Of a stretch of 64,000 bases of DNA, positions 26,265 to 63,958 are shown in pieces. The stretch spans positions 3,063 to 67,062 of the forward strand of contig CAZWFS010000001.1 of the NCBI GenBank assembly GCA_964633325.1, read 5' to 3'. Position numbers and translations under genes: made by a program. Position 1 is the stretch's first letter. Every line of letters begins with the position of its first letter. Below the pieces are notes generated by a model. That model was not told where the DNA came from. It made no database searches and saw only the letters and a program-made list of their open reading frames with translations. This stretch comes from an uncultured Candidatus Saccharibacteria bacterium (lineage in GTDB: Bacteria > Patescibacteriota > Saccharimonadia > Saccharimonadales > CAZWFS01).

Positions 26265-26270
26265 ACTAAC

Positions 26271-34995: not shown

Positions 34996-35088
34996 GAACC
35001 GAACGTGGCGGAGAGGGAGGGATTCGAACCCTCGCGGGGGATTGCTCCCCCCTATCGATTTAGCAAACCGACCCCTTCAGCCTCTTGG
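34996..35088 (-). tRNA. tRNA-Ser (anticodon GCU) with a long variable arm and encoded CCA
   Basis: The reverse complement reads GGAGAGG...TCGGT-TTGCTAA-ATCGA-(19-nt variable arm)-GAGGG-TTCGAAT-CCCTC-CCTCTCC-G-CCA. Confidence 0.75.
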
Positions 35089-35494
35089 GTACCTCTCCTT
35101 GCGCCAGACTCGGCCATTATAACAAACGCGGAGGAATACGGGCCTGGAATTTTTAGGGGCCCTCCGACTTTATAATTACTCGCTCAGGATTTTTCGGTCT
35201 CCTGGCCCGCCATACACTTGTCAAATGGCGGGACATTCGGGTCTGGAACCTTTCACCCTGTTTCTGTCCCTATACAGTCTAGCGGATAAAATGGGACACA
35301 ACCAGACTAGTTTGTGCCATTTTTGTAAAATCTCATCTGAAAATGAGACAAATGGAACAAGCGTCTCATTAAAAGACGTGTCCCATTCTATGAGGTAACT
35401 TGACTACAATCATAAGTTATGACATAGCAAGCATAACTACACGCTTATGTTAGTATAGAAGCGAAATAGTCCGTGAATCCTTGCGAGAGACGGA

Positions 35495-37099: not shown

Positions 37100-37156
37100 A
37101 GCTCCTCCCTTCATTAAGTTAGCCTTCTTATGATGGAAGGATGAGATAATATAGCT

Positions 37157-37753: not shown

Positions 37754-37845
37754 CTCACTTTGACTCCTAATTAGCCATTTTTTAGTTCCGTCGTGTAACG
37801 GCACTTCTTAGCGTAGCTTTATAAGTGTTAACTAAGGAGTTAAAA

Positions 37846-39171: not shown

Positions 39172-39566
39172 GCCGTAACCAAAAAACAGATAAGAAACGC
39201 TTGCTAGAGAAGTTAGCTAAGACACCAATTGTGGAAATCGCCTGCAAGCAAGCTGGTGTACCACGTAGCACCTACTACCGGTGGCGTAAGGATGATGAAA
39301 CCTTTGCCAACCAGTGCGACGAAACCATTGAGCAAAGCGCAGGCCTGATCAATGACATGGCTGAGAGCCAGCTTATCCAAGCCATTAAAGACCAGAACAT
39401 GACGGCTATTATCTTTTGGTTGAAGCACCACCATCCAACCTACTATGCCCGACTTCGGCTGGATGGGCACATCAAACATGAGAGTGAGGAACTAACGCCA
39501 GAACAGACCGAGGCGGTCGTTCGGGCGCTGGCATTCTTGAAGGAGAGTAACGATGGCAGTGGCTGA
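39168..39566 (+). CDS. terminase small subunit-like HTH protein
   Basis: IACKQAGVPRSTYYRWRKDDETF HTH. It overlaps the methylase stop (ATGA) and lies immediately upstream of terL. Confidence 0.5.
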   Translation: MSRNQKTDKKRLLEKLAKTPIVEIACKQAGVPRSTYYRWRKDDETFANQCDETIEQSAGLINDMAESQLIQAIKDQNMTAIIFWLKHHHPTYYARLRLDGHIKHESEELTPEQTEAVVRALAFLKESNDGSG

Positions 39567-44390: not shown

Positions 44391-44780
44391 TTGGAAACTC
44401 CATTAGGGTTAAGTTCTATTACCTCTGCTTGTCGCCCTAAATGGAGTTTTCCCTTGAGAAATAAAAAACTCCCGCCGTTGGGAGTTTTCAATCATGACAA
44501 ACCCAACGGTCTAGGACGGTACCGTTGTCGTGGTTGATTGGCTTGAAATGATTGGATAAATCATAGAGTGTATTATAGCACGAAACTTAAGTATTGACAA
44601 ATTTTTGTATAACGTGTAAGCTTGCCTGGATGATAAGTTTAACCCAAGTATTATTTATTGTACCGCCAGCCCCTAGTAGTCACCGGAGGCTTTGCTAGGT
44701 TTTAAATAACATAAATCCAAGAATCAGCGCAAGGCGGCCTCCGGGCCGTCTTTTTACTTGCGCTGATTTACGGAGTAATT

Positions 44781-50561: not shown

Positions 50562-51935
50562 TTGTCCTTGATGAATCAACAAGGAACACAACTAACCAAT
50601 ACCTCAGCTCTCCAGTTGCCACATGAAAAAAACGGGAGGCCTGTCGATAGTATAGCCGTCAAAGCAAAACGAGTTGAATACTGCCTCTATGCCCGAAAAT
50701 CCAGCGAAGATGATGAACGCCAAGCCCTTTCCATTGATTCACAGATCAAAGAAATGGCAGTTCAGGTCGAAAGCCAGGGACTACGGGTTACAGAGATCCG
50801 GAAAGAGAGTCACTCTGCCAAACAATCTGGACAAAGACCAGTGTTTCAACAATTGATTGAGGATGTTCGCAAAGGACTATTCACTGGCATATTGAGCTGG
50901 GCACCAGATCGCCTAAGCAGAAATGCCGGTGACTTGGGCTCAGTCGTAGACCTTATGGATCAAGGTAAGTTAGTTGAGATCAGAACTCACGGCCAGGTAT
51001 TCACCAACTCACCCAACGACAAGTTTCTGCTAATGATTCTATGTTCCCAGGCCAAACTTGAGAACGACAACAGAGGCATCAACGTTAAAAGAGGCATGAA
51101 AACCAAGTGTGAACTGGGCTTTCGGCCTAATATGACACCACTCGGTTACCTTAACGACCATTACTCCGGCAAAGGTCAAAAGAAGGTGTTCGTAGATAAG
51201 AAGCGAGCACCAATTATCAAAGAGGCCTTTGAAAAGGTGGCTACCGGTGCTAGCGGACGCGATATTTATAACTGGATGAAAGAAATCAACTATAGGACTA
51301 AGAGCGGCAAGTTAATGACACTGAGTGGTGTTTACCGTATGCTCAATAACCCATATTACTGCGGTATCTTCGAATTCCCGACCGGCAGTGGCAAATGGTA
51401 CAAAGGATCGTATACGTCGATTATCTCTAGAGAATTATTTGATGCGGTTCAAAAGAAGATGGAAGTGAACCCAAAAAGTAAGCCAGGAACCAAGCAATTT
51501 GACTATACCAAATTGCTTAAATGTGGTGGCTGTGGCTCCGGCGTCACGGCGCAGGAGAAATTCAAAAAACGCAAAGACGGTACTGCTAAACGTTACGTTT
51601 ATTACCACTGTACTCAATCGCGAGACTTTGACTGCCCGCAAGGCTATATCCGGGAAGAAAAACTGGCCGAGGCCTTCGTCAACATGCTGGAGAAAGTAAC
51701 AGTTGAAGAAATTGAAAGCAAGGAAGCCCTGAGGGCTGAACTTGATAGATTCAGGCGTTTATCGTCTGCAGTACTGGGATACAGTAACAATCCAGAGCAA
51801 CCGGAGATTAATCTGCATAACTTTGCTAAATACGTGCTTACAGAAGGAACAAGAGCCGAAAAACGTGAATTGATCTCATGTCTTGATCAAACGATTTATC
51901 TTAAAGATAGACAAGTGCACACAACTCTGAGCTAG
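50562..51935 (+). CDS. large serine recombinase; true start uncertain
   Basis: Catalytic motif YARKSSEDDERQ, recombinase domain (NNPYYCGIFEF), zinc ribbon (CGGCGS...YYHC) and a C-terminal coiled coil. The track ORF starts at a TTG and places the catalytic Ser unusually far from the N-terminus (about aa 49). Confidence 0.75.
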   Translation: MSLMNQQGTQLTNTSALQLPHEKNGRPVDSIAVKAKRVEYCLYARKSSEDDERQALSIDSQIKEMAVQVESQGLRVTEIRKESHSAKQSGQRPVFQQLIEDVRKGLFTGILSWAPDRLSRNAGDLGSVVDLMDQGKLVEIRTHGQVFTNSPNDKFLLMILCSQAKLENDNRGINVKRGMKTKCELGFRPNMTPLGYLNDHYSGKGQKKVFVDKKRAPIIKEAFEKVATGASGRDIYNWMKEINYRTKSGKLMTLSGVYRMLNNPYYCGIFEFPTGSGKWYKGSYTSIISRELFDAVQKKMEVNPKSKPGTKQFDYTKLLKCGGCGSGVTAQEKFKKRKDGTAKRYVYYHCTQSRDFDCPQGYIREEKLAEAFVNMLEKVTVEEIESKEALRAELDRFRRLSSAVLGYSNNPEQPEINLHNFAKYVLTEGTRAEKRELISCLDQTIYLKDRQVHTTLS

Positions 51936-52013
51936 GAAACCGTAAGCTTGCAGAATAACTTGCTTATTGGATAGCTATATTTTTATCTGTTGTTCCCCTA
52001 TACTGAAGGAGCT

Positions 52014-55000
52014 ATGGGAAGTGTTACTGCACACCAGGATCAGAATCGTTTACTAGAAGTGGAGCCTACTAAGCTCCACAGTACAAAAGTTACTCTGCCT
52101 CTACGTCTAATCGACAGCGTAAAAGTTGGCAAGAATCGAGCCAATCAAATTTACCAAGACGAAGAATTAGTTGACGTTGATGTTTATGATGAGGGGGATA
52201 AGCTCTTAAAGTTAAAATCAGAAAAAGAAGAGTTTATTCTTAAGCTACCGGGAGCCAGAGCAACCATCACTAATAAAAATGTGTTAAGAATTGCAAACTA
52301 CACAGATGCAAAATCTATAAATCAAGATAGCAAATTAACTTGGGAGGACTTTCAGGGCTCCGAGGCACCAAACAGTACTAATGGAGTGAAAGAATCTTGG
52401 CTTCATTCCTTTAATTTTAAGGAAGAATATCCAGCAAAGAATATACCTGGTCTTAGAAAACCCCAAGCGGGCGCAATACACTCTGTAGCCGCTCATTGGT
52501 CTGTGAAAAACGACTGCGCCACAATTGTAATGCCTACTGGTATAGGGAAAACTGAAACGATGCTTTCGGTTATGGTTCATCAACAATGTGAAAAGATTCT
52601 TGTTCTTGTACCCACCAGTGCGCTTAGGAAACAAATATATAACAAATTCTTAACGCTAGGTAAGTTGAAGAAACTTGGGGTTGTTGAGCAGAAAGCACTG
52701 AGCCCCCGTGTATTAATGATTGAGCACACCATTGAAAATGTGGCTGAAGCAAAAGAAGTATTAAAAAACGCCAACGTTATTGTAGCTACTGTAAGTGTCC
52801 TAAATCGCTCAAGTGATACCGTCAAACAAGTAATATCTGAGGGATGCTCTCATTTGTTTATAGATGAAGCGCACCATGTACCTGCCAATAGTTGGAGTGC
52901 CATAAAAGACCTTTTTGAGAACAAATATATCTTGCAATTTACTGCTACACCGTTTAGGCGAGACTCAAAAGTAATTGAGGGGGATATCATATACAACTAC
53001 CCCCTAGGAATGGCGCAGAATGACGGCTACTTTAAGAAGATTAACTTATTGAAGCTTCAGGAGTTTGATGACGCGAAGTCAGACGAAGAAATAGCCAAAG
53101 CGGCAATAGGAGCACTTGAGAATGATCTAAACGGCCCAATAAAACTTGATCATATGATTATGGCTAGGTGTAAGGATAAGGATCGAGCTCGTGATATAAT
53201 CCGACATTACAAAAAACACGGTACAACATACAACCCGGTTCTTATTGATTCTGAATTGACCAGTAAACAATATAGAGAAATCGAGGAGAAGCTAAAGAAC
53301 GGCGAAACTAGGATTATTGTCTGTGTAAATATGCTTGGTGAAGGTTTTGATCTGCCTAATCTCAAAATAGCTGCCCTACATGATGTCCATAAGAGCCTTG
53401 CGATCACCCTCCAATTCATAGGTCGTTTTACAAGAGAAGCTAAGGATGTTGGTGACGCTACCGTTGTAGTGAATGTGAATGATCCCCAAGTTAATAAGGA
53501 CTTGGAGGGTCTATATTCTGAAAACCCAGATTGGAATGAAATCTTAAAGCAAAAAAGTGAATCTACCATAGAGCACGAAATAGAATCCCATGAGTTTATA
53601 AAAGAATTTTCAGGGGAGCTTTCAAAGCACATTTCTCTTTGGAATTTACGCCCATCATTCTCAACGCTAATTTATGAAACTAAGTGTCAAGACTGGAACC
53701 CCAAAAAGTTCGAGGAGGTAATGCCCAAGCGATACAAATACTGGCATGCAATAAACCAAAAAGAGAAAATACTGGTTGTAGTTATTAGCAAAGAAGATGA
53801 GGTAAATTGGGGCCGCTATAAGGACATTCATAATCACAGCTTTGAACTTTGTGTGGTGCATTGGAGCGAAGAGCATAAAGCGTTGTTTATACAATCTAGT
53901 GACTACGATGCAATTAACCCGGCAGGTTTATCAAGAGCTATTTGTGGAGAAGATACCAAAATCAAAAATGGGTCTAATGTATTCAACATATATTCAGGCG
54001 TGGAGCGCATTCTTGCTCGTAATCTCGGCATCTCGACTGTTGGGAATAATATATCCTACACAATGCACTTTGGTAGTGACATTACTCAAGGCCTCTCAAA
54101 ATTAGATAAGTCTTTAGGGGTTCTGAACAACATTTCGGCTTGGGGTTTTGAGGGCGGTGATCGTTTTATGGCAGGCTGCTCGGAAAGAAGTGGCAAAATT
54201 TGGTCTATCGGTGGTGGTCCTATGATGCTTTGGAAAAGTTGGTGTCATAAGGTGGCCGACAAAGTTTTTGATGAAACTATTGAGGCGAATAAGGTAATCG
54301 AAGAATTTCTTCGCCCCGTCCAGCTCGAAAAGAGGCACAAATCCGTACCTCTGTTGATCGAATGGAGTGAAAGGATTCTTAAGGCAAAAGAGGACAATAT
54401 AACTGTCTTGTTCGGTAAAGAAGAGTTTAAAATTTATGACGTAGAAATAGAGATTACTAATTTTTCTGATTCAGGTCCTGTTCACTTCCGAGTATTTAAT
54501 GATACCCATGAAACAAAATACAAAATAGATTACTCAAAAACGGACTGCAAATACTCCATTGTCAGTGGCAACGATATGAGTATTAAAAAGTACAGTGCAC
54601 AGCCTGTTCCGTTTATGGACTACGTTTTGAGAGACCCGGTTGTCGTTATATACGTGGACGGGTCTTTCTCATACAACAATTATCACGTACCTACACCGCC
54701 ACTAAACCAATTTTATGACAAAGAGCGTTTGCAGGTTGTTGATTGGCAAAAGACAAATATACGGGTGGAGTCAATGAAAAAAGAAAGAAAAACCGATAGT
54801 ATTCAACACAAAGTGTGGCAAATGCTTAATGATGAATATGAAGTCGTCTTTAACGATGACGATTCAGGAGAAGCTGCCGATCTAATCGCCATAAGGCAGG
54901 AGTCTACTGACACAATAAAGTTGCACCTAGTTCACTGTAAATTTTCATCAAAGCCAAACACTGGGTCTAGAATAGGAGATTTTTATGCTCTCTGTGGACA

Positions 55001-55304
55001 GGCGCAAAAATCAATCAAGTGGAAGCATAATGGGCTCGATTATCTTTGTGAACACATGAAGCATCGTAATGAGGCATGGGAAAAGACAAAGAACAGCAGA
55101 TTTTTAAAGGGCAGCGTGGTTGATTTAAATAAGTTAAAAAAATTCTCAAGATTTGCGACAAACTTTGTATTCGAAGTTACAGTCGTACAGCCCGGGTTAT
55201 CAAAGGCAAAAATATCTGATGACGTCATTCAGCTTTTAGGTAGCACGGAGGACTATTTACTAAAGACTTCCAATGCCAGCTTTAATGTGTTTTGTTCAAA
55301 GTAG
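52014..55304 (+). CDS. large SF2 (DEAH/ResIII-type) helicase with an about 600-aa uncharacterised C-terminal region (possible nuclease); candidate defence protein
   Basis: Helicase motif I MPTGIGKT, Ia LVLVPTSAL, II FIDEAHH, III TATPFR and VI QFIGRFTR. The C-terminal half has no recognised domain except a possible D...(E/H)xK-like segment (EAADLIAIRQES...LHLVHCKF). The start was moved to the ATG at 52014, which has a GAAGGAG RBS. Confidence 0.7.
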   Translation: MGSVTAHQDQNRLLEVEPTKLHSTKVTLPLRLIDSVKVGKNRANQIYQDEELVDVDVYDEGDKLLKLKSEKEEFILKLPGARATITNKNVLRIANYTDAKSINQDSKLTWEDFQGSEAPNSTNGVKESWLHSFNFKEEYPAKNIPGLRKPQAGAIHSVAAHWSVKNDCATIVMPTGIGKTETMLSVMVHQQCEKILVLVPTSALRKQIYNKFLTLGKLKKLGVVEQKALSPRVLMIEHTIENVAEAKEVLKNANVIVATVSVLNRSSDTVKQVISEGCSHLFIDEAHHVPANSWSAIKDLFENKYILQFTATPFRRDSKVIEGDIIYNYPLGMAQNDGYFKKINLLKLQEFDDAKSDEEIAKAAIGALENDLNGPIKLDHMIMARCKDKDRARDIIRHYKKHGTTYNPVLIDSELTSKQYREIEEKLKNGETRIIVCVNMLGEGFDLPNLKIAALHDVHKSLAITLQFIGRFTREAKDVGDATVVVNVNDPQVNKDLEGLYSENPDWNEILKQKSESTIEHEIESHEFIKEFSGELSKHISLWNLRPSFSTLIYETKCQDWNPKKFEEVMPKRYKYWHAINQKEKILVVVISKEDEVNWGRYKDIHNHSFELCVVHWSEEHKALFIQSSDYDAINPAGLSRAICGEDTKIKNGSNVFNIYSGVERILARNLGISTVGNNISYTMHFGSDITQGLSKLDKSLGVLNNISAWGFEGGDRFMAGCSERSGKIWSIGGGPMMLWKSWCHKVADKVFDETIEANKVIEEFLRPVQLEKRHKSVPLLIEWSERILKAKEDNITVLFGKEEFKIYDVEIEITNFSDSGPVHFRVFNDTHETKYKIDYSKTDCKYSIVSGNDMSIKKYSAQPVPFMDYVLRDPVVVIYVDGSFSYNNYHVPTPPLNQFYDKERLQVVDWQKTNIRVESMKKERKTDSIQHKVWQMLNDEYEVVFNDDDSGEAADLIAIRQESTDTIKLHLVHCKFSSKPNTGSRIGDFYALCGQAQKSIKWKHNGLDYLCEHMKHRNEAWEKTKNSRFLKGSVVDLNKLKKFSRFATNFVFEVTVVQPGLSKAKISDDVIQLLGSTEDYLLKTSNASFNVFCSK

Positions 55305-55784
55305 TTTGGGGGATAAGTTCACAATTACTCCCGGGTGCACGCGTAGGTCCGGTGAGAATTCTTATGTTCTTGGAGTTTAAAGGACAATACGTTCAAGGGT
55401 GTACGTAGTTAGTGTAGATGCATTCTTTTCGTTGCGTTCTGGCATCCACGGCGCATCTCTTGAACCTTTTACCCAAAGTGCAAGAAATACTGGGTTTGTA
55501 GTTTTGTGTACATCCGGGGTGACGGAAAGAATCTATGCTTTTTACGCCAGACTTTTACCATAGCCACAATAATCGCAATGTAGACCAAACCATTCTAGAA
55601 CCAAAATTCATTTAAAAGTTCCAGAAAATCAGGGCTTTAAGGAGTAATTGGCGAGTTCCAGTCCCAGGTGGGGTCAAGCTAAATCAAGCACTTAAGACAA
55701 ATAGAAGACCCCTCGCGGGGTTTTCCTTCCTCTTTGATTGTTCTTGTCCTTTCACTGACCCCTGTAAAAGTTCCACTTTCTATC

Positions 55785-55876
55785 TGGCGGAAGGGGTGGG
55801 ATTCGAACCCACGGACCCGTTGCCGGGTCTCCGGTTTTCAAGACCGGTGCACTCGACCAGACTATGCGACCCTTCC
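55785..55876 (-). tRNA. tRNA-Ser (anticodon UGA) with a long variable arm and encoded CCA
   Basis: The reverse complement reads GGAAGGG...CCGGT-CTTGAAA-ACCGG...GTGGG-TTCGAAT-CCCAC-CCCTTCC-G-CCA. Confidence 0.75.
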
Positions 55877-55939
55877 ACGAAATTAAGTGATTATAACTTA
55901 ACAGGGGTGATTATAACAGTTAAGCTACCCGGCTCCAAG

Positions 55940-56614
55940 CTAAAGCCTTTGGGCAAATATAATGGCATCGACTTGGCGGGCGCCGGCTACTTTAAGGGCT
56001 TTGGCGGCTTGCTCCAACGTAGCGCCGGTAGTCAAAACATCGTCAACCAGTATTATATGCGCGTCCTTAATCAGAAAGTCCTTGCGCGGGGAGAAAGCGC
56101 CCTCTAACTGACGGAGGCGCTCTGCTCTACTTGCACCTACTTGCCTGGACTGGCCGTGGCGAGCTAATAAAGCAATATGCCTGCGGCCTAGTCGCCTTGA
56201 TAAAGCCCTGGCTATTAACTGGGATTGGTCGTAGCCACGGATGCGCACCCGCGAGGTAGCGGCCGGAACGTGAGAGATAATCACGCTTTTATCAAAATAG
56301 GGGATTGTCCCCTCAATAAGCGTGGCGATGGTTTTGGCGGCATCCTTGGCGCGTTCAAACTTTAGGGAATGGACTAACTGTTTACTAGGCCCCGTATATT
56401 CACCGGCAATCCAGACATGTCGGAGATAGCTAGAGCGGCGACACTTGCTGCATACCGCACTATCCTGGGTGGCTGCATGACAACGATAACATCTAGAGGG
56501 CATTGGTGTTTCGACTTCTGACAGGCACCACTCACATAGCAAGGCACCTTCCCGCTGGCACCCAAGACACTGGTGCGGAGCCAAAAAACCGATTACTTGT
56601 TCAAGAAACAGCAT
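55940..56614 (-). CDS. comFC: ComF-family protein (ComFC-like phosphoribosyltransferase with an N-terminal double zinc ribbon)
   Basis: CLGCQREG...CEWC and CYRCHAATQDSAVCSKC zinc ribbons, followed by the PRTase motif ILVDDVLTTGATL. Confidence 0.7.
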   Translation of the reverse strand: MLFLEQVIGFLAPHQCLGCQREGALLCEWCLSEVETPMPSRCYRCHAATQDSAVCSKCRRSSYLRHVWIAGEYTGPSKQLVHSLKFERAKDAAKTIATLIEGTIPYFDKSVIISHVPAATSRVRIRGYDQSQLIARALSRRLGRRHIALLARHGQSRQVGASRAERLRQLEGAFSPRKDFLIKDAHIILVDDVLTTGATLEQAAKALKVAGARQVDAIIFAQRL

Positions 56615-57014
56615 GCTTTATCCATTTTACATATACCCATCAAAAATTGCTTTTCGGTTTTTGGGGTCGATGATTTTTGAGTCGGAAGTTTCCGAAATTT
56701 TATCAGCGTACTCTGGAGTACGGTTATCAAATTTCGGAAAGTTCTGGCCGAAAAGAGCGGGCCTAGAAGCCGGAAAGTGGCTTCTGGTGGGTATACCCTT
56801 TAGTTACCTCAAACTAGTCAAACCCAGGCAGAAGAAACCGCATCTAACACTCAAAGGCTGAAGGCATTCATTGACCAAAGCTACTGTTGTTGTGCGAATT
56901 ACCGTTGTAAATATGTATGTTTAGTGGTTGCAAGGTGTTTACTAACTAAGCTATACTGCTAACAAGATAAAAACGCAAGCCAAATACTATATTACACCTG
57001 GAGGGTAAAAAATT

Positions 57015-57500
57015 ATGGCGCGACGTAACCGCGACGAAGACCTATTGATGGAAGACGAACTGACTGCCGCATTCTTGGGCGACGATGACATGCCAGCTGA
57101 TGACGCAGGCGCCCAGCCGGCTGCTCAACAAGCCCAGGCTCCGACTACTGACGAATGGGACGAGGAAGAAGCCGTTCCCGGACAGCTTGCCGTTGACGTT
57201 TACGAAACTAAGGAGCGCTTGGTGGTGAAAGCCCGAACCGCAGGAGTAAATAAATCCGACCTTGACGTTAGTATTTCTGATAATACCCTGAGCATCCGCG
57301 GGACGCTTTCGGCCGGTACCGAGGATGACGTAGAGAATTACTTTGTGCAAGAATGTTACTGGGGCGAATTCTCGCGCAGCATCGCCCTGCCGGTGCCTGT
57401 CAAAGAGGATGAGATCGAAGCCGTACTTAAGGACGGCGTGCTCACCATTAGCTTCACAAAGGTTAAACAAGATACCGTCAAAAAGATTCAAATCCTCTAA
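57015..57500 (+). CDS. small heat-shock protein (Hsp20/alpha-crystallin family)
   Basis: Alpha-crystallin domain (LAVDVYETKERLVVKARTAGVNKSDLDVSI...). The gene is preceded by TTGCAA - 18 nt - TATACT. Confidence 0.8.
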   Translation: MARRNRDEDLLMEDELTAAFLGDDDMPADDAGAQPAAQQAQAPTTDEWDEEEAVPGQLAVDVYETKERLVVKARTAGVNKSDLDVSISDNTLSIRGTLSAGTEDDVENYFVQECYWGEFSRSIALPVPVKEDEIEAVLKDGVLTISFTKVKQDTVKKIQIL

Positions 57501-57573
57501 GCTGTATGTAGTCAATAATTAAAGACCGTCCGTGTAATAACGGACGGTTTTTTGTTTTACAGCTCGAGGAATT

Positions 57574-57990
57574 TTAGCTGGTTGTTTGGGTGGCCTTGGC
57601 CAGTACGAAGCGAACGATGAACTGGGCTAGCGCTACCACTATTAAACCTACAATGGCATAGAGTATGGTGTTCTTTGCGCCGGTGACATTGCCGGAATCA
57701 CCACCGGAGGTAATGTATTTGAGCCCTCCTACGATTATCATTATGACAGCGACCACACCTACTATCAGCGAAAACACGTTTACGATTAGTTTAATGATGC
57801 TGTCCAGCCTTGATGTGGCTGTAGCATCATCGGGTTCACACTCTGCTCCGGGAGATAGGGTTAAGTCAGCCCCACACTGGACCTTCTTGCCCAGCTCTTG
57901 AGCATAAACAGTTGCCGGGAGTACCGCGGGAGCCGCGAAAAGCCCAAACGCCATAGCGCTTAATAAAAATCTTTTAATTGCTGTAATCAT
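57574..57990 (-). CDS. VirB2/TrbC-like pilin-family protein, paralog A
   Basis: Signal peptide, a Cys pair in the exposed region and a core of two hydrophobic helices joined by GGLKYITSGGDSGN. The C-terminus ALAQFIVRFVLAKAT is shared with paralog B. Confidence 0.55.
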   Translation of the reverse strand: MITAIKRFLLSAMAFGLFAAPAVLPATVYAQELGKKVQCGADLTLSPGAECEPDDATATSRLDSIIKLIVNVFSLIVGVVAVIMIIVGGLKYITSGGDSGNVTGAKNTILYAIVGLIVVALAQFIVRFVLAKATQTTS

Positions 57991-58137
57991 TTTTAGTTAT
58001 ACCTTTCTTTGATATAGCCTTACTTATATCATAAACTTTTTACTTTATTCAAGTGCTCGGGCATGTAGACGGATATAGATGTCCGAATAAGAAGGCTTAA
58101 TTATTAATTGCCGGGGCCTTTTACCGCCCCTATCTTA

Positions 58138-58536
58138 CTACGTGGCCTTAGCTAACACGAAACGAACTATAAACTGGGCTAATGCAACAACGACCAGGCC
58201 GATTACTGCATAAAGCAACGTTGACCGCGCAGCGTTTATATTACTACTTTCTCCGCCGGAAATGATGAACTTAAGACCTGACACGATAATCATGATGATT
58301 GCCGCTATGCCGACAACCAGCGAAAAGATGTCAATAGCCGCCTTGACCACCGTACTGACCCTTACCCTGGAAGTGTCGCTGCCGCAAGCCTCGCTGGAAC
58401 CTATATTCACTCCGGCGCATATATCGTCAACTGCAGCGGCTTGGACGGCTGCAGGAACTAGAAATGCACCTACCAACAGCATCAGCACCACTAATGACGC
58501 TAGCCTGCCCCTAAGTGCATAAATCGCTTCCTTCAT
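58138..58536 (-). CDS. VirB2/TrbC-like pilin-family protein, paralog B
   Basis: Same architecture as paralog A; IMIIVSGLKFIISGGESSN core. Confidence 0.55.
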   Translation of the reverse strand: MKEAIYALRGRLASLVVLMLLVGAFLVPAAVQAAAVDDICAGVNIGSSEACGSDTSRVRVSTVVKAAIDIFSLVVGIAAIIMIIVSGLKFIISGGESSNINAARSTLLYAVIGLVVVALAQFIVRFVLAKAT

Positions 58537-58550
58537 AAAATTAACTCCGT

Positions 58551-58979
58551 TTATAGTTTATTAAGTACGAATATTACGATGGATTGGGCCAACGCCGCCA
58601 CCACTAGGCCGATTACCGCGAACAGCACGCTGTCACGCGCGCTATTGACTTTGTTTATATCGCCGCTGGCAGTCACGAAACGGATAGCGCCGATTATAAT
58701 GACGAACAGCGCTACAACCCCGACTACCATAGATAAAATATTAGCTATTTTAGTCAGGATGCCATTAGGCCCATAAAGTTTATTACTGCCAGGTTCTTGT
58801 GGGGTATTATCCTTGCATATAGTGGCGCTCGGAGTAGACTGGCAGACCGGGTCTAAGACCTGGGCCCTAACGGCTTGGGTGCCTGATAGCGCAAAAGCCA
58901 ACGTCATTATAGCCATAAGCAACAAGCTCCGTAACCTTTTAGGTGCCCACACATTAAGCATTTGCAAAATATGGGTCAT
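58551..58979 (-). CDS. VirB2/TrbC-like pilin-family protein, paralog C
   Basis: Signal peptide, Cys pair and FVIIIGAIRFVTASGDINK core. Confidence 0.5.
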   Translation of the reverse strand: MTHILQMLNVWAPKRLRSLLLMAIMTLAFALSGTQAVRAQVLDPVCQSTPSATICKDNTPQEPGSNKLYGPNGILTKIANILSMVVGVVALFVIIIGAIRFVTASGDINKVNSARDSVLFAVIGLVVAALAQSIVIFVLNKL

Positions 58980-59275
58980 TACGATACACCCCTTAGTACC
59001 AAGCTTACGATACTGAAAGCCAGGACAGAAATCGCCAGGCCTACGGCCGCGTAGATTATGGAGTTACGGGCTTTGGCTGTTTGGCTTGAATCGCCCAAGG
59101 CAACGGAGAATTTAATCCCTTGGATAATAAGGATGATAAGTGTACCTGCCCCAATAAGCCCGAACACTATCTGCAGGATGCCCCGAAGGCTAGCATCGGT
59201 AAAATCCGGCTGCGGAAGTTTTACATCTTGACGCGGTACATTCACCTGGGCAAGATAAGATAAAAGCTTCGTCAT
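58979..59275 (-). CDS. VirB2/TrbC-like pilin-family protein, paralog D (short)
   Basis: LIILIIQGIKFSVALGDSSQ core; no long N-terminal region. Confidence 0.45.
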   Translation of the reverse strand: MTKLLSYLAQVNVPRQDVKLPQPDFTDASLRGILQIVFGLIGAGTLIILIIQGIKFSVALGDSSQTAKARNSIIYAAVGLAISVLAFSIVSLVLRGVS

Positions 59276-59661
59276 ATAAGGCTCCCCGCTACAAGGTTGA
59301 CAATTACGGTGGCTGAAGCAGCTATGGCTAGGCCAATCAGGGCATTGATTATAGTGTTCAGAGCCTTCTTTGCGTTATCAGGTTCACCTTGGCTTAGGAT
59401 GTATTTGATGCCGCCAAATATGACGAACGCAACAGCTACCATACCCCCAAGTCGCAATAATATTTCCGCTAGTGCTAGCAGAATTTTGCCTATATCGTCC
59501 GGAAAATTAATAATAGGCGAGCATTTGCCAGCTATGGATTCTTCCCCCAAATACTTATACCAGGTAGGAAACATTTTGAAGGCCTTCGGATCACCGCAAG
59601 CCGCAAACTGTGTGAGTATATCCCAGCCAACCATTAGAATATGCCCCCTGGCACCAACCAT
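59272..59661 (-). CDS. VirB2/TrbC-like pilin-family protein, paralog E
   Basis: Cys pair and FVIFGGIKYILSQGEPDNAKK core. Confidence 0.45.
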   Translation of the reverse strand: MVGARGHILMVGWDILTQFAACGDPKAFKMFPTWYKYLGEESIAGKCSPIINFPDDIGKILLALAEILLRLGGMVAVAFVIFGGIKYILSQGEPDNAKKALNTIINALIGLAIAASATVIVNLVAGSLI

Positions 59662-60215
59662 TGCAGAAAGGCAAAGGTGAAAATGTATGCAATAAGGGCT
59701 ATGACGGCATTGCCAATACGTTTTTGGGCGGCTTGCGCTGTCTGCGGGTTATCTGCCGAAGCCGAGTACTGGATACCACCGATAATGATCATGATGACAA
59801 CAGTAATTCCCACAATCGCCGACAGGGCCCTGATGAAAATTACCAGGTATCTGATAATACCGCAGTTACTTTGGTCTAGACCCACAGAACTGCAGTCATT
59901 TTTAACGTATTTTGGAGTGTCGGTTGTCTTCGTGGGGTTATAGCTATGGCTAGTGTCGGGACAGGTTGTGCCAGGAGCTAGTGTTCCGGGCGGGCCGCCT
60001 GGGCAGCCTGCTGGGATCACTGGGCACACCACACCAGGAGCGCGCGGCCCAGCTGGACCACCGGGGCAGCCGGCTGGGATAGTTTGGGCGCCTACAAACA
60101 ATGCAGAGCTAGAAAAGATAATGAAGCCGGACAGAGCCGCCGTGGCAAGCACGGCGATCCTTATTGGAAATGATTTCTTTTTGTGAGACATATCTGATGC
60201 CGATTTTACAAACAT
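59634..60215 (-). CDS. VirB2/TrbC-like pilin-family protein, paralog F, with a collagen-like Cys/Pro/Gly repeat region
   Basis: Signal peptide, repeats PAGCPGGPAGPRAPGVVCP/PAGCPGGPPGTLAPGTTCP and a conserved core VIMIIIGGIQYSASADNPQ. Confidence 0.5.
   Translation of the reverse strand: MFVKSASDMSHKKKSFPIRIAVLATAALSGFIIFSSSALFVGAQTIPAGCPGGPAGPRAPGVVCPVIPAGCPGGPPGTLAPGTTCPDTSHSYNPTKTTDTPKYVKNDCSSVGLDQSNCGIIRYLVIFIRALSAIVGITVVIMIIIGGIQYSASADNPQTAQAAQKRIGNAVIALIAYIFTFAFLQWLVPGGIF
59990..60090. repeat. tandem direct DNA repeat inside the paralog F coding region
   Basis: ccgggcgggccgcctgggcagcctgctgggatcactgg... is repeated as ccagctggaccaccggggcagccggctgggat...; it encodes the PAGCPGGP peptide repeats. 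Confidence 0.5.
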
Positions 60216-60297
60216 TACCGGTGAAAGTCAAAAACACTACCTAAATCGCTTGTGTATTGAACCGTCTGGTATAATCTAAAAGCAAGAACTATCAAAC

Positions 60298-62712
60298 ATG
60301 AAAACAAAGCATATAATAATTTCCCTGTTCATGACCGTCATTTGCGGTCAGCTTTTACTCCTGCTAGCGCCACTATCGGCATCGACGGCCACCTATCAAG
60401 GAAAGTGGATCGATAGGAGCACCATTGAAATAAATGGCGTAAAATATATTGACAATAAGACCAGTGACAATACTCACCATTTCCAGGAAAACGGCAATGA
60501 CGACAAATCGAAATGTGTCGATGTTATCAAGGAGTTTAACAACGGCGATATTACCAAAGCTACCTCCGCACATTTGGTTAAGTGGGAAAGTTACTCACCC
60601 CGTATACCTGGTTTAGGCTCAGTTGATGCCACCTGTGTAGAGAAAAGCACTGACACGGTAAACATAGATCCCGCCTCGCTTGCGAACGCCAACAAGCCTC
60701 CTGGCGCTAACCCCAGCGGGCAGAATGAGGAGGACACTTGTGAATCCCATGGAGTTATGGCATGGCTCATGTGCCCGGTTATAGAGCTGTTGGACGGCAC
60801 CTTTAATTGGCTCGACACACAAATCCAAGCCTTATTAGAAATTAATCAAGACGCCTACACCAGCCCTAAGCTTCGTGAAGCCTGGGGTGCAATGCGTAAT
60901 ATCGCCTATATCATCTTGGTGCCCATGATGCTTGTCATGGTTATTGGTACGGCGCTCGGTATTGAATTGTTCAGCGCCTATACCGTCAAAAAAGCCATGC
61001 CGCGGATGGTAGCGGCTGTTATATTTATGACTTTGTCGTGGCAAATTTGCACTTTTATCATCGGTTTTTTCAATGTGGTCGGCGCTGGTGCCCTGGGTCT
61101 CATGACCGCCCCTTTTGGTGCGGCGCTGCAAGGCGACGTCACCCTCTCCCGCTTGTTCGAGGTCAGTTATGGGGGCTCGGTGGGTCAGTTTGCGGGCATC
61201 GGTGCTTTCTTACTGTTAATCAATAATATATCGGGTTTGATGGGTATTATAATGAGCTACCTTGGCCTGGCTGTTCTAGTAATGATCATTACCTTTTTGG
61301 TGCTGACCCTCCGCCAGATGTTCGTACTAGCTTTACTGGTGGTATCGCCGCTGGCTATCCTAGCGTGGATATTCCCTGGTAACGACAAGCTTTGGAAGTC
61401 CTGGTGGGGATTGTTCTCTAAGTTACTCATGATGTTCCCGCTCATAATGGTGCTTATTGGTGTTGGCCGGGTATTCGCGTTTATCATTGGGAACACTCCA
61501 GGAGGAACACTCCAAGGCAGTTTATTAAATCCTATCCTAAAAATTGTAGCCTATACGATTCCCTACGCGCTGATACCGCTGACGTTTAAGTTTGCCGGGG
61601 GAGTGTTTGCTACCGTTACCGGCATGGTCAATGACCGTAGCAAGGGCGTATTCGACAGAATGGGCAAGAAGCGCCAACAGAAATACGAACGGACAGGGCG
61701 GCAAGTGCTCCAAAAACGGGCTGACTGGCAGAACCGTTTGCAAACGGCCGCATCGCAGAACCGACCGGGGGCAAGAGGCGCAATGCAAAGTTTTGCCCTC
61801 GGAAAACTATCTAGAGGAGTGGGGGGCTATAATGTGATGGCGGCCGATTCAGCACGCCGCGCGGCTGTGCAGAAAGAGCTCAATGACCAAATCAACACTG
61901 GTCGTGATGATGAAATCCGCGGATTAACGGTAAATAAGGCAGCGGCAACACTGCAAAATGGATTAATGCGCCTCCACACGAATCCTGACGGTACTGAAAC
62001 CCGGCAATATAAAACTCTTGGTGGAGCATGGGTAAGTGAAGCGGCAGTCGATGACGGGTACCGGCGCTGGGGTGATGATAGTTACGCGCAGCAAACTGCC
62101 TTGTCTTACGAGATGCGCAAAGCGGCTACAGACGAAGAAGTCCAGGGCATTGGTGAAAGGTACCAGGATCTTGCGGTTGGCGGATGGGGTATGAGCGGGA
62201 ATATGGCAACTGGGACACTTAAGGGCGCTGGTTTCGAAAATCAGGGCACCCACTTGGAATTCAAACACATGAAACTGGATGGTAGCTTGGACCACGAGGC
62301 TTTTGTCAAAGAAGCGTATGAAAAGAAGGGCAGCTACCCATTGTCTCAAATGAGCGGGCACACTATTAAGCAGCTAAGGAATTCCCACGCTGCGGCAGTA
62401 GCGTCAGGAGATACTGAAACCCAGAGAAGGGTTGCAAGCGTGGCGGAAACATTCATGACCAGATATGGAGCGGGCGATGGCATGATGGATGATGGCAGTG
62501 GGAACATGGTACCTGCGCCGACTGGGGCTAGGGGACCAGCAGCTCCAGCTTATCAGACCAATTCCCATGGTGCCGCTTCTGTAGCCGAGGAAGTACGCAA
62601 ACTGGCCGTAGACACAGGAGTTTACCGAAGAGACGTGCATACAACCCCTGGCACACTTCCTGTAAGTCCGGGGCCAGTAGGTCCTATTCCTCCTATTGAT
62701 CCTCATCACTAG
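60298..62712 (+). CDS. VirB6/TrbL-like polytopic membrane protein with an N-terminal secreted domain and a C-terminal hydrophilic tail
   Basis: Signal peptide and about 130-aa extracellular region, followed by 6-7 TM helices in TrbL/VirB6-like spacing (aa about 200-440) and then a long hydrophilic C-terminus. The gene is divergent from the pilin array. Confidence 0.5.
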   Translation: MKTKHIIISLFMTVICGQLLLLLAPLSASTATYQGKWIDRSTIEINGVKYIDNKTSDNTHHFQENGNDDKSKCVDVIKEFNNGDITKATSAHLVKWESYSPRIPGLGSVDATCVEKSTDTVNIDPASLANANKPPGANPSGQNEEDTCESHGVMAWLMCPVIELLDGTFNWLDTQIQALLEINQDAYTSPKLREAWGAMRNIAYIILVPMMLVMVIGTALGIELFSAYTVKKAMPRMVAAVIFMTLSWQICTFIIGFFNVVGAGALGLMTAPFGAALQGDVTLSRLFEVSYGGSVGQFAGIGAFLLLINNISGLMGIIMSYLGLAVLVMIITFLVLTLRQMFVLALLVVSPLAILAWIFPGNDKLWKSWWGLFSKLLMMFPLIMVLIGVGRVFAFIIGNTPGGTLQGSLLNPILKIVAYTIPYALIPLTFKFAGGVFATVTGMVNDRSKGVFDRMGKKRQQKYERTGRQVLQKRADWQNRLQTAASQNRPGARGAMQSFALGKLSRGVGGYNVMAADSARRAAVQKELNDQINTGRDDEIRGLTVNKAAATLQNGLMRLHTNPDGTETRQYKTLGGAWVSEAAVDDGYRRWGDDSYAQQTALSYEMRKAATDEEVQGIGERYQDLAVGGWGMSGNMATGTLKGAGFENQGTHLEFKHMKLDGSLDHEAFVKEAYEKKGSYPLSQMSGHTIKQLRNSHAAAVASGDTETQRRVASVAETFMTRYGAGDGMMDDGSGNMVPAPTGARGPAAPAYQTNSHGAASVAEEVRKLAVDTGVYRRDVHTTPGTLPVSPGPVGPIPPIDPHH

Positions 62713-62794
62713 TTGCAAGTTGGCACAGGAAATATATAAATAAGCGTTTAGCTATAGTTGCGCGTAAGCATCTTGTACAGGATAATAAAAGTAT

Positions 62795-63958
62795 ATGGCA
62801 ACCTATAAAGTAATCCAGGATATTGAGGCTGAAGACAAGCTGCTAGGACCGCTGTCCTTAAGACAGTTTATCTATGCGGTAATTGTAGTGTTGCAGCTTT
62901 TCCTTGGCTATAAGCTACTTCCTATCAGTCCGTTTTTTATCGTACCAATGTTGCCGACCATTATCCTATTTACGGTGTTAGCGGCTCCGTTTGGAAGGGA
63001 CCAACCTTCTGAGGTATGGCTGCTGGCTAAGATCCGGTTTTTCCTAAAGCCCCGTAACCGTATATGGGATCAGAGCGGACTGAAGCAGCTGGTGACGATC
63101 ACCGTACCTAAACGGCCAGAGAAACACTTCACTAATAACTTGAGCCAGACCGAAGTGCACAGCCGCCTGCGCGCCCTGGCCGACACCATCGATAGCCGAG
63201 GCTGGGCCGTCAAGAACGTCAACGTCAATTTAAACAGCGAGCCTTCATACGCCGCGACCGGCTGGGGAAGTGACCGCCTAGTGGATGCCTCCAGCCTACC
63301 CCAAGAAGTACCCAGCTACGAAGTTACCGCTTCCGACGATATTATGGACGCCAGGAATAATCCAGTCGCACAACAATTGGACCAAATGATGATGGCCTCC
63401 GCCCAAGCTCACCGCAAGCAAGTAGTCCAGCAGATGCAGCAGCCAGCTGCCGCGCCGGCCAGCAATCCCGCGCCGACGCCAACTAATGACTATTGGTTCC
63501 TGAACCAGCCCGACCCCATGCAATTGCCAGATCCCGGCTATGTGACCTTTGGGGCACAGACCATTTCCCCGGGCACGCCATTGCCTGAAACCGCTGCATA
63601 CGGATATGCTGACCCGTCTGAAGAAGCAGCCATTGCCCAGCAGCTGCATACCCAGCAGTCTAATTCTCCGGCTGCGTCTTTTGCCCACATGAAAGTCATT
63701 AACCCATTGGGACAAGCTGAATCGCAGCCGCTATCGTCCGCCAATCCGCAGTCAACGGATGCCGCACAACAAGTAGCAGACGACAACGCAGTTAATGCTG
63801 ATAACAGATTGCAGACCACTAGCGGTACGCCCGCTAACCCTGCTATACTTAATCTGGCTAACAATAACGATCTGAATGTGGCGACGCTGCAGCGCGAAGC
63901 CAATCGTTCTACCAAGAAACATCCTCCGAACGATGAAGTAGTCATTTCGCTGCGATAA
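62795..63958 (+). CDS. PrgI/VirB3-like two-TM protein with a long low-complexity C-terminal extension
   Basis: The N-terminus KLLGPLSLRQFIYAVIVVLQLFLGYKLLP...FIVPMLPTIILF has the PrgI-family topology and position (it would precede a VirB4 ATPase beyond the window). The C-terminus is Q/A/P-rich. Confidence 0.4.
   Translation: MATYKVIQDIEAEDKLLGPLSLRQFIYAVIVVLQLFLGYKLLPISPFFIVPMLPTIILFTVLAAPFGRDQPSEVWLLAKIRFFLKPRNRIWDQSGLKQLVTITVPKRPEKHFTNNLSQTEVHSRLRALADTIDSRGWAVKNVNVNLNSEPSYAATGWGSDRLVDASSLPQEVPSYEVTASDDIMDARNNPVAQQLDQMMMASAQAHRKQVVQQMQQPAAAPASNPAPTPTNDYWFLNQPDPMQLPDPGYVTFGAQTISPGTPLPETAAYGYADPSEEAAIAQQLHTQQSNSPAASFAHMKVINPLGQAESQPLSSANPQSTDAAQQVADDNAVNADNRLQTTSGTPANPAILNLANNNDLNVATLQREANRSTKKHPPNDEVVISLR

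Follow-up and report, generated by a model that had tools for sequence, protein, structure and literature searches.

Saccharibacteria are ultra-small bacteria that live on other bacteria. Among the closest described counterparts of the locus analysed here is the T4SS of Candidatus Southlakia epibionticum ML1, SEML1_0006-0019 (Wang et al. 2023, Cell; PMC10633639), which has the same order and orientation, orthology being judged by gene order, size and annotation only: tRNA-Ser, comFC, Hsp20 and six pilins, followed divergently by a VirB6-like gene, an extended PrgI, a protein of ~290 aa, VirB4 and large hydrolases. The whole block spans SEML1_0006-0022, with the tRNA-Ser (SEML1_0022) likewise beside comFC. 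The T4SS and pilin genes of this strain scored as essential or growth-defective and comFC as non-essential (PMC10633639), and the Hsp20 gene, SEML1_0020, is listed as essential. The same architecture, without relaxases, is also described in a survey of 2,474 virB4 genes by Quinonero-Coronel et al. 2025 (PMC12102498). No T4SS other than that of Patescibacteria is known to be indispensable to its own bearer, and no other monoderm (single-membrane) T4SS is known to have VirB2-like pilins.

The window, that is, the whole 64-kb stretch of DNA that was analysed, very probably contains the front half of a chromosomal Patescibacteria-type T4SS of a Saccharibacterium, related to the monoderm MPF-FATA conjugative T4SSs and serving epibiotic host interaction, not conjugation. 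A sequence-only reading had proposed that the locus encodes a T4SS, and this is borne out by the PrgI and pilin profile matches given below. Since the system has already been described in Saccharibacteria, the result is a correct rediscovery and not a new type of machine.

Layout and chromosomal setting of the locus

The region 55785-63958 consists of tRNA-Ser, comFC, Hsp20, six minus-strand VirB2-like pilin genes, and the divergent genes for an 804-aa VirB6-like and a 387-aa PrgI/VirB3 protein. All ORFs named in the sequence-only reading were recovered by an ORF check at the coordinates it had assigned to them. In window coordinates, the features are as follows.

55785-55876, minus strand: tRNA-Ser(tga) (ARAGORN; Rfam tRNA, 58.4 bits)
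55940-56614, minus strand: comFC-like gene, 224 aa, with a double zinc ribbon and a phosphoribosyltransferase domain
57015-57500, plus strand: Hsp20 small heat-shock protein (PF00011, 68.4 bits)
57521-57552, both strands: terminator-like bidirectional hairpin with a 13-bp stem and T-runs on both strands
57574-57990, minus strand: pilin 1, 138 aa, last gene of the operon (PF18895, 52.8 bits; TrbC PF04956, 24.2 bits)
58138-58536, minus strand: pilin 2, 132 aa (PF18895, 41.4 bits)
58551-58979, minus strand: pilin 3, 142 aa (PF18895, 32.1 bits)
58979-59275, minus strand: pilin 4, 98 aa, short form (PF18895, 35.8 bits)
59272-59661, minus strand: pilin 5, 129 aa (PF18895, 49.9 bits)
59634-60215, minus strand: pilin 6, 193 aa as called, first gene of the operon (PF18895, 25.8 bits; DUF6112, 22.9 bits)
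60203-60297, no strand assigned: divergent control region, consensus matches only, not conserved in relatives
60298-62712, plus strand: extended VirB6-like protein, 804 aa (fold, topology, gene position and precomputed TrbL_3 label)
62795-63958, plus strand: PrgI/VirB3-like protein, 387 aa (PF12666, 38.9 bits against a cut-off of 27, residues 5-90)

The pilin operon and the VirB6-PrgI operon are divergent and share a control region of 82 bp. For the pilin operon, a promoter-like match (TTGACT-17-TAAAAT, 60231-60203, minus strand) is a consensus match only; its -10 hexamer falls within the ORF of pilin 6 as called, the true start of which is probably Met9, at 60191. For the VirB6-PrgI operon, an extended -10 element had earlier been placed at about 60262-60275. 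Its motif, TGGTATAAT, occupies the narrower interval 60267-60275 on the plus strand, 22 nt 5′ of the ATG, and is likewise a consensus match only. Taken alone, TGGTATAAT is within chance expectation, as the window contains five matches where 2.8 would be expected, and a count of five or more arises in 18 of 100 shuffles. Neither is the element conserved: even a looser pattern matches at the same position in just 2 of 12 relatives. At the far end of the pilin operon, the hairpin at 57521-57552 separates the operon from the converging Hsp20 gene.

The locus was compared with the related loci L002, L003 and L004, which carry comFC, Hsp20, five to six pilins, VirB6, PrgI, a TraC-like gene, VirB4 (TraG P-loop, AAA_10), a VanY/GDSL hydrolase and a lysozyme with M23 or amidase domains, and with a metagenome set of 80 loci. 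The Hsp20 gene, which sits between comFC and the pilin array, is a conserved neighbour found in 11 of 14 metagenome loci, and its product shares 84-89% identity with its orthologues in L002 and L004. Like Hsp20, comFC and tRNA-Ser are best regarded as conserved neighbours and not as T4SS components. The tRNA-Ser forms the conserved outer edge of the syntenic block, with a low-GC island on its opposite side. VirB6 proteins across syntenic Saccharibacteria are only 25-55% identical; the block tRNA-Ser-comFC-Hsp20-pilins-VirB6-PrgI is syntenic despite this divergence, and also in S. epibionticum ML1, a pattern that indicates vertical inheritance. The present locus confirms vertical inheritance of the architecture across Saccharibacteria, including the flanking tRNA-Ser-comFC-Hsp20.

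The window carries GroEL, several tRNA synthetases, a Mur ligase and TsaD. In keeping with this housekeeping context, the earlier view of the locus as chromosomal and not borne by a mobile element holds. GC content is 0.47-0.52 in the locus, the same as in the housekeeping parts of the window, and 0.38-0.44 in the islands. The 64-kb window yielded neither a relaxase nor a coupling protein, a domain scan of 35 window ORFs outside the locus having returned no relaxase or T4CP domains, which agrees with the earlier remark that neither was visible. An Rfam scan detected tRNAs only. Three serine recombinases and phage-like genes are also present in the window; the recombinase island is on the far side of the tRNA-Ser, away from the T4SS locus, and a search for att-like direct repeats of the island next to the tRNA-Ser was negative.

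Components of the secretion machine

The sequence-only reading had taken the 804-aa protein to be VirB6-like with extracellular and cytoplasmic extensions. Fold, topology, gene position and a precomputed PF19590 label bear this out, our own sequence comparisons with TrbL, PrgH and TrwI being not significant. In the hydropathy profile, the N-terminus is signal-like, the ectodomain takes up ~160 aa, the hydrophobic core lies at 197-435 and the C-terminal domain (~345 aa) is K/R-rich. The ectodomain is beta-rich (33-123), and cysteines C148 and C159 are invariant; the polytopic core covers ~190-435, and the helical domain on the cytoplasmic side (~455-775) is conserved. The core helices are seen both in hydropathy and in the AF2 model (pLDDT 76.9), for which the top Foldseek matches in the PDB are to TrwI/VirB6 of R388 (7o3v, 8rt9, 8rtd), with modest values (probability 0.89-0.99, E 0.02-0.24, target-normalised TM-score 0.34-0.39); the best chain is 7o3v_F (probability 0.99, E 0.024, target-normalised TM-score 0.36-0.39). 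The C-terminal domain models well (pLDDT >90 over ~190 residues) and has no convincing PDB neighbour, the best match (E 0.2) being to generic helical repeats. As for gene position, the gene lies immediately 5′ of PrgI, and in 25 of 25 related loci PrgI likewise has a VirB6-like gene upstream. The precomputed PF19590 (TrbL_3) label, which was not reproduced here, is carried by the identical protein P0001 and by 119 of 120 homologues among the matches listed (E at most 1e-5). A search with PF04610, which had been put forward as a check on the VirB6 assignment, fails: the TrbL model of the local Pfam copy matched neither the 804-aa protein nor any of 40 family members. NF046089 (CD3337/EF1877) matched the protein with E 9e-5 and 21 bits against a cut-off of 120, and matched 2 of the 40 family members. 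Comparisons by hhalign were not significant (0.2% against pCF10 PrgH, 2.4% against R388 TrwI), and neither a tblastn search of the transmembrane core against plasmids nor a PDB profile search with the protein returned anything.

The PrgI assignment is firmer, having passed the PF12666 check with the score listed above. The protein has two transmembrane segments at ~24-67 and a tail of ~240 aa in which Ala, Pro, Gln, Ser and Asn are abundant; tail included, it is 54-56% identical to its orthologues over nearly the full length. PrgI lies directly 5′ of a TrsD-like gene in 55 of 55 loci, and also on L001, a 3,080-bp Logan contig that overlaps the window by 2043 nt at 100% and ends in a (CTCACTG)n repeat 76 nt past the TrsD-like stop. 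On this contig, the gene following PrgI is a 289-aa TrsD/TraC-like ORF beginning at window position 64092, ~134 bp past 63958. The ORF carries a precomputed PF26593 TraC-like label and gave no match in the local Pfam scan; its product shares 68-74% identity with the orthologues located just ahead of VirB4 in L002 and L003, and this product is recorded on the same NCBI contig, of 159,795 bp, as the window proteins. The earlier expectation of a VirB4 ATPase just beyond the window end has indirect support as to the gene and needs correction as to its place: VirB4 should start ~1.1 kb beyond the end, because the TrsD/TraC-like gene comes next and in 51 of 51 related loci VirB4 is the gene right after it. 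Neither of two homologue searches showed the VirB4 of the source genome among its 120 listed matches. From the 51 relatives and S. epibionticum ML1, we infer that the downstream genes encode a VirB4 ATPase, which is highly conserved, and a pair of large cell-wall hydrolases.

The pilin array, which had been proposed as such, consists of six tandem minus-strand VirB2-like genes. Five of the six small ORFs score above the T4SS_pilin (PF18895) cut-off of 26.6 bits, at 32-53 bits, and the sixth reaches 25.8; all six encode a C-terminal two-helix hairpin as judged by hydropathy. Pilin profile comparisons with R388 TrwL (0.7%) and pCF10 PrgF (5%) were not significant, the PrgF alignment covering the whole hairpin. 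A type IV pilus or T2SS reading of the array was also considered and is out, as the small proteins match VirB2/T4SS_pilin models and have the C-terminal hairpin and no N-terminal prepilin helix.

Pilin 1 is VirB2-like, with a signal peptide (VYA↓Q), a Cys-X11-Cys loop and the two-helix hairpin, and its best matches are the same-position pilins of L002, L003 and L004 (50-58% identity). The paralogues are 22-51% identical to it, pilin 2 being a close one (51% in a MAFFT alignment, 44% by BLASTP). The best matches of pilin 3 are at position 3 of L003 and L004. Pilin 4, which is without an N-terminal signal peptide and whose ORF overlaps its neighbours by 1 and 4 nt, has same-position orthologues of 95-99 aa in all three loci. 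Pilin 5, with the conserved motif C..F..P(T/V)W(Y/F)KYL, takes second place in the operon in all 21 of 21 arrays, and pilin 6 adjoins the divergent VirB6 gene in the same number. The latter has two 20-aa Pro/Gly/Cys-rich repeats in its ectodomain and scores 28.6 bits, below the cut-off, against NF045849 (Mycoplasma ICE pilin-like). The pilin genes are therefore positional orthologues across genomes. The promoter-proximal genes are invariably types 6 and 5, usually with type 4 after them, the order 4,5,6 being kept in 16 of 21 arrays; arrays in the metagenome loci contain four to seven pilins, most often six.

From this, one could tentatively suppose, though we hold it to be rather doubtful, that the six pilins are ancient, non-interchangeable subunit types in a fixed order, with copy number varying only for the far-end type 1/2 genes, and not a redundant array for antigenic or host-range variation, and that the helical cytoplasmic domain of the extended VirB6, which is without a PDB neighbour, could replace the missing coupling protein as substrate receptor. 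If the pilins are such fixed types, the pilus would be heteromeric, with dedicated base, tip or minor pilins, which would be unprecedented for VirB2-type pili. The fixed order of distinct pilin types thus leads to a heteromeric-pilus hypothesis that is testable in genetically tractable strains.

Function of the locus and alternative explanations

In the most likely reading, the product of the locus is a pilus or channel driven by VirB4 that serves host interaction, and not conjugation or Com-linked DNA uptake. In such a machine, as characterised T4SSs suggest by analogy, a VirB4 hexamer would be docked on the membrane by PrgI/VirB3 and the TrsD-like protein, and VirB6 would provide the membrane platform and channel. 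Membrane-embedded pilins would be pulled out by VirB4 and polymerised into a tube or filament reaching the host bacterium, the peptidoglycan being opened by the hydrolases. The role in epibiotic host interaction could be protein export, or the structure may act as a conduit to host material.

Alternatively, the pilin array may form only an adhesive or structural filament for host attachment, through which nothing is translocated, but we consider this unlikely. Such a filament would fit the six conserved, non-redundant pilins with their variable Cys-containing ectodomains, the lack of a recognisable T4CP or substrate receptor, and the tubular structures toward the host seen by cryo-EM in another Patescibacterium (bioRxiv 10.64898/2026.06.21.733656). 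However, type IV pili already serve adhesion in Saccharibacteria (PMC12857230), the extended VirB6 has a conserved cytoplasmic domain, and two very large hydrolases are conserved together with the ATPase, which suggests more than a filament.

A second possibility is a DNA-uptake T4SS like Helicobacter ComB, working with ComFC to import host DNA for nucleotides or transformation. The neighbouring comFC product has a Pribosyltran domain (34.6 bits, above cut-off), a DZR_2 match below cut-off (22 bits) and eight cysteines arranged as four CxxC pairs, and it matches TIGR00201 (comF) with E 1.5e-27 and 96.8 bits against a cut-off of 233.55; K02242, assigned to the same-position gene of S. epibionticum ML1, we take to be ComFC. 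The adjacency of comFC is conserved in L002, L004, 9 of 14 metagenome loci and S. epibionticum ML1, the locus is without relaxase or T4CP as are ComB systems, and Saccharibacteria are unable to make nucleotides (PMC10633639). Nevertheless, comFC is a separate transcription unit from the T4SS, because it lies across the Hsp20 gene and the bidirectional terminator from the pilin array; its distance, earlier given as 1.5 kb, is in fact 0.96 kb to the end of the array and 3.7 kb to the start of the VirB6-like gene. In S. epibionticum ML1, comFC, comEC and dprA are dispensable and the T4SS is essential, so the essential role cannot run via the Com system; deletion of comEC abolishes transformation and leaves growth unaffected. 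In the literature, transformation is assigned to ComEC and type IV pili (PMC12857230; PMC10633639). Moreover, ComB systems have VirB7-10 homologues, whereas no VirB8, VirB9 or VirB10 domain was found among the locus proteins. The DNA-uptake machine of the sequence-only reading, with its implied link to comFC, is thus disfavoured, comFC being a separate unit and non-essential where the T4SS is essential (PMC10633639; PMC12857230), and we regard uptake as very improbable.

Finally, hardly any credence can be given to a mating-pair-formation module of an integrated conjugative element with relaxase and coupling protein outside the window: the order VirB6-VirB3-VirB4-hydrolase is that of pCF10 prgH-prgI-prgJ-prgK, recombinases and phage-like genes occur in the window and the locus abuts a tRNA gene, but the synteny of the block across divergent Saccharibacteria and S. 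epibionticum ML1 points to vertical inheritance, the GC content is that of the housekeeping parts and not of the islands, the recombinase island lies beyond the tRNA, BLAST searches with PcfC, TrwB, PcfG and TrwC (a low-sensitivity test) gave no relaxase or T4CP match within 10 kb on each side in related loci, and relaxases are found near virB4 in only 15 Patescibacteria genomes in the survey of 2,474 virB4 genes (PMC12102498).

Comparison with known T4SSs

With the MPF-T systems R388 Trw and Agrobacterium VirB, the system of host interaction proposed here shares a VirB2-type two-helix-hairpin pilin and the VirB3-VirB4 module, and, among PDB structures, the TrwI/VirB6 fold matches the 804-aa model best. 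These systems differ in being diderm (two-membrane) and in having VirB5, VirB7-11, a T4CP, a relaxase and a single pilin gene. In addition, R388 VirB6, of 342 aa, is without ecto- or cytoplasmic extensions, and its sequence similarity to the 804-aa protein is not significant. The MPF-FATA prototype, Prg/Pcf of Enterococcus pCF10, resembles the locus in the gene order prgH (VirB6-like), prgI, prgJ (VirB4), prgK (lysozyme), in its PrgI family protein and in a monoderm architecture with no VirB7, VirB9 or VirB10. In contrast to the locus, pCF10 has PcfC (T4CP), the relaxase PcfG, adhesins and no VirB2-like pilins, and no similarity of its PrgH to the 804-aa protein can be detected by sequence (0.2% probability in hhalign).

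The Patescibacteria-clade T4SSs (PMC12102498) have TrsD, PrgI/VirB3, VirB6 and VirB2 arrays of 2-11 genes near virB4, and they are chromosomal, without relaxase and with highly divergent pilin paralogues. There, comF near the T4SS was reported mainly for the class ABY1, whereas comFC adjacency is found here in Saccharimonadia, and the arrays were suggested to serve antigenic or host-range variation, whereas fixed positional orthology is seen here. Beyond the shared gene order, S. epibionticum ML1 has pilins of similar sizes and a cluster without relaxase or T4CP. It differs in that an NTF2-like gene separates a pair of VirB6-like genes, of 1088 and 998 aa; the window has a single VirB6-like gene, for the 804-aa protein, and no NTF2-like gene. 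Its PrgI (SEML1_0010) is also extended, at 300 aa, compared with 117 aa for PrgI of pCF10 and 387 aa here.

Gene layout and promoter motifs

All of the ORFs named in the sequence-only reading were recovered where it had placed them, and the locus reads as follows.

Genes of the T4SS-like locus (window positions)
55785-55876, minus, tRNA-Ser(tga)
55940-56614, minus, comFC-like gene, 224 aa
57015-57500, plus, Hsp20 gene
57574-57990, minus, pilin 1
58138-58536, minus, pilin 2
58551-58979, minus, pilin 3
58979-59275, minus, pilin 4
59272-59661, minus, pilin 5
59634-60215, minus, pilin 6
60298-62712, plus, VirB6-like ORF, 804 aa
62795-63958, plus, PrgI ORF, 387 aa

Since neighbouring pilin ORFs touch or share 1, 4 and 28 nt at three junctions, the six look like one operon, which is closed, together with the Hsp20 gene, by a hairpin with a 13-bp stem (57521-57552) that is terminator-like on both strands. 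Pilin 6 and the VirB6-like gene are separated by a divergent spacer of 82 bp. On the minus strand, TTGACT-17-TAAAAT is found at 60231-60203, and because its -10 hexamer falls within the called pilin 6 ORF, translation of pilin 6 probably begins at Met9 (60191). As for the extended -10 element proposed for the spacer, TGGTATAAT is present at 60267-60275, as a consensus match only: the motif occurs five times in the window against 2.8 expected, and at the divergent spacer it is not conserved at the same position in relatives. Four of the five matches lie directly upstream of genes, in promoter-like positions. TGnTATAAT at 35116-35124, 44572-44580 and 55910-55918 (all minus strand) is located directly 5' of two tRNA-Ser genes and a class II tRNA-synthetase gene (43056-44390).

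Family assignment of the proteins

The PrgI assignment was borne out by PF12666 (38.9 bits against a cut-off of 27). Five pilins scored above the cut-off of T4SS_pilin (PF18895) and the remaining one slightly below (25.8 against 26.6), with TrbC/VirB2 as secondary, sub-threshold matches and further weak matches to a pilin-like protein of Mycoplasma ICEs. A C-terminal two-helix hydrophobic hairpin is found in all six, and signal peptides with A-x-A sites in pilins 1, 2, 3 and 6. In the ectodomain of pilin 6 (59958-60077, residues ~47-86), a 20-aa Pro/Gly/Cys-rich repeat occurs twice in tandem (IPAGCPGGPAGPRAPGVVCP and IPAGCPGGPPGTLAPGTTCP), in place of which pilins 1-3 have one Cys-X(10-13)-Cys loop each. 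The comFC-like protein has a zinc-ribbon plus phosphoribosyltransferase architecture and matches TIGR00201 (E 1.5e-27) under the curated cut-off.

The proposal that the 804-aa protein is VirB6-like can be accepted on fold, topology and context, but not on sequence. Neither this protein nor 40 family members matched anything in the local Pfam copy, and NCBIfam gave a weak match (21 bits) to the CD3337/EF1877 mobilome membrane protein. A PDB profile search and tblastn against plasmids were non-significant, as were hhalign comparisons of the VirB6-like family with pCF10 PrgH and R388 TrwI, the sole aligned stretch pairing the motif that is most conserved in the family, PLAILAWIFPGNDKLWKSWW, with PLFILALIWQPTHRFFDQW of TrwI. 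A precomputed PF19590 (TrbL_3) label is carried by the identical database protein P0001 and by 119 of 120 homologues among the matches listed. Local Pfam-A hmmscan of the same or identical proteins returned neither this label nor the precomputed PF26593 (TraC-like) label; the models may be absent from the local library, or the pipelines may differ. In an AlphaFold model of the protein (pLDDT 76.9), the best PDB matches were TrwI/VirB6 chains of the R388 T4SS (probability <=0.99, E ~0.02), with target-normalised TM-scores of 0.34-0.39. The layout comprises a signal peptide, a beta-rich ectodomain, two invariant cysteines, a polytopic core and the K/R-rich start of a long cytoplasmic domain, in agreement with the 'extended VirB6' of a FEMS review (PMC12857230), and the gene lies directly 5' of PrgI. 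The modelled fold, the topology and the context thus point to a VirB6. The C-terminal domain (residues 455-804) was confidently modelled, and a PDB search of the model gave no convincing neighbour for it; in the proteins of Southlakia epibionticum ML1 (Se ML1), Wang et al. tag the corresponding regions as ARM-repeat-like (PMC10633639).

Past the window end and the chromosomal setting

The Logan contig L001 overlaps the final 2043 nt of the window with 100% identity, and the next gene on it, starting at window-equivalent 64092, encodes a 289-aa protein with a precomputed TraC-like label (here TrsD-like), which is also assigned to the 159,795-bp NCBI contig that carries the window proteins. Just 3' of this gene is a (CTCACTG)n tandem repeat (L001 3045-3080, ~window-equivalent 65002-65037), and it is because the Logan assembly breaks at this repeat that the VirB4 of the source organism is not linked to L001. 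Three related loci have, after the TraC-like gene, one for a ~640-aa VirB4-type ATPase (TraG P-loop, AAA_10, DUF87), with two large cell-wall hydrolases 3' of the ATPase. One of these loci, L002, comes from a metagenome-assembled Candidatus Saccharibacteria genome. VirB4 (L002 13875-15803; L003 8114-10027) is unusually conserved when compared over hundreds of Saccharibacteria clusters defined at 90% identity. Among 80 metagenome loci gathered via the TrsD-like protein, VirB4 was directly downstream of the TrsD-like gene in 51/51, PrgI directly upstream in 55/55 and a VirB6-like gene upstream in 25/25; pilin arrays held 4-7 genes (mode 6), and Hsp20 and comFC were within 10 kb in 11/14 and 9/14 loci, respectively. 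Given these neighbour counts in relatives, the prediction of a VirB4 gene beyond the window is almost certainly right, except that it would start ~1.1 kb past the end, after one more gene, and not just past it.

The chromosomal setting and the apparent lack of a relaxase or coupling protein held up as well. GroEL, valyl/leucyl-type, alanyl- and prolyl-tRNA synthetases, a Mur ligase, TsaD and PGI are encoded in the window, and a scan of 35 window ORFs outside the locus turned up neither a relaxase nor a coupling protein; BLAST of the metagenome loci against the pCF10 and R388 coupling proteins and relaxases, a low-sensitivity test, likewise gave zero matches. The GC content of the locus (0.47-0.52) is like that of the housekeeping parts of the window, whereas three recombinase-bearing islands have 0.38-0.44.

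Features of the recombinase-bearing islands
24000-34155, stretch with the lowest GC in the window (0.38-0.45), with ABC transporter ATPases inside
30882-31850, AAA_25 protein, in 24000-34155
32591-34093, 500-aa serine recombinase, in 24000-34155
34079-34155, tRNA-Arg(gcg), overlapped on the opposite strand by the 3' end of the 500-aa recombinase gene
35006-41118, phage-like/integrative segment adjoining tRNA-Ser(gct)
35495-37297, minus, 600-aa serine recombinase, in 35006-41118
37825-39171, ParB-N6/N4 DNA methylase fusion, in 35006-41118
39553-41118, terminase large subunit, in 35006-41118
50562-55700, low-GC (0.40-0.42) two-gene island adjoining tRNA-Ser(tga)

The stretch 24000-34155 is probably another integrated element. 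Of the two genes in the island at 50562-55700, one encodes a 457-aa large serine recombinase and the other an SF2 helicase-type protein of 1104 aa, which weakly matches defence models (PbeA, type IV restriction and Cas3-like). The tRNA at the edge of the conserved T4SS block lies between that block and the island, and a search for att repeats found none.

Conservation, possible mechanism and known systems

In each of the three comparison loci, the best match of window pilins 1, 4, 5 and 6 is the gene at the corresponding position. The two places nearest the divergent promoter are taken by types 5 and 6 in 21/21 arrays, type 4 is ahead of them in 16/21, and copy-number variation is limited to the type 1/2 genes at the opposite end of the array. 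By these matches, pilin genes of divergent genomes are positional orthologues, which fits non-redundant subunits better than recent amplification for antigenic variation; in Se ML1, all six pilins scored essential or growth-defective (PMC10633639). Identity among Saccharibacteria falls steeply from VirB4 (84-92% among the matches listed) through the TrsD-like protein (~70%) and PrgI (~55%) to VirB6 (25-55%) and the pilins (30-58%); the fastest-evolving parts are the surface-exposed ones. Gene content and conservation are direct observations. By analogy with solved T4SSs, VirB6 would form the membrane platform, VirB3 and TrsD would anchor VirB4, VirB4 would drive pilin extraction and polymerisation, and the hydrolases would breach the peptidoglycan. 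Tubular structures, possibly T4SS pili, that join another Patescibacterium to its host, and acquisition of host RNA by that Patescibacterium, are described in a 2026 preprint (bioRxiv 10.64898/2026.06.21.733656).

This kind of system has already been described, and the locus is confirmed and biologically interesting rather than a discovery; the overall interpretation, a T4SS-like locus not borne by a mobile element, is supported. In Tn-seq, the T4SS of Se ML1 (SEML1_0006-0019, with the pilins among these genes) proved essential when the epibiont grows on Actinomyces, and it has neither coupling protein nor relaxase (Wang et al. 2023, PMC10633639). Since comEC deletion abolishes transformation and leaves viability intact, the Com machinery cannot be the route by which the T4SS is essential (FEMS review, PMC12857230).

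The gene order of the window is identical to that of Se ML1, tRNA included, the sole difference being that the window has one VirB6-like gene and no NTF2-like gene. We take the KEGG identifiers K02242 and K12063 to be ComFC and TraC/VirB4, respectively. In Se ML1 the order is tRNA-Ser (0022), the non-essential K02242 gene (0021), Hsp20 (0020), six pilins (0019-0014), two VirB6-like genes on either side of an NTF2-like gene (0013-0011), PrgI (0010), a 293-aa protein (0009), the K12063 gene (0008) and a pair of large hydrolases (0007-0006) (PMC10633639, supplementary tables). The interval between pilin array and PrgI differs among relatives (L002 8700-9251, minus; L004 8833-9927, plus; L035 6346-8784; and other metagenome loci), holding an NTF2-like (possibly VirB8-like) gene, an extra ~360-aa gene or, as in Se ML1, a second VirB6-like gene, and it is at its most compact in the window. 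In a survey of 2,474 virB4 genes, the adjacency of comFC and Hsp20 was noted for the class ABY1 (Quinonero-Coronel et al. 2025, PMC12102498); it is present here in Saccharimonadia also.
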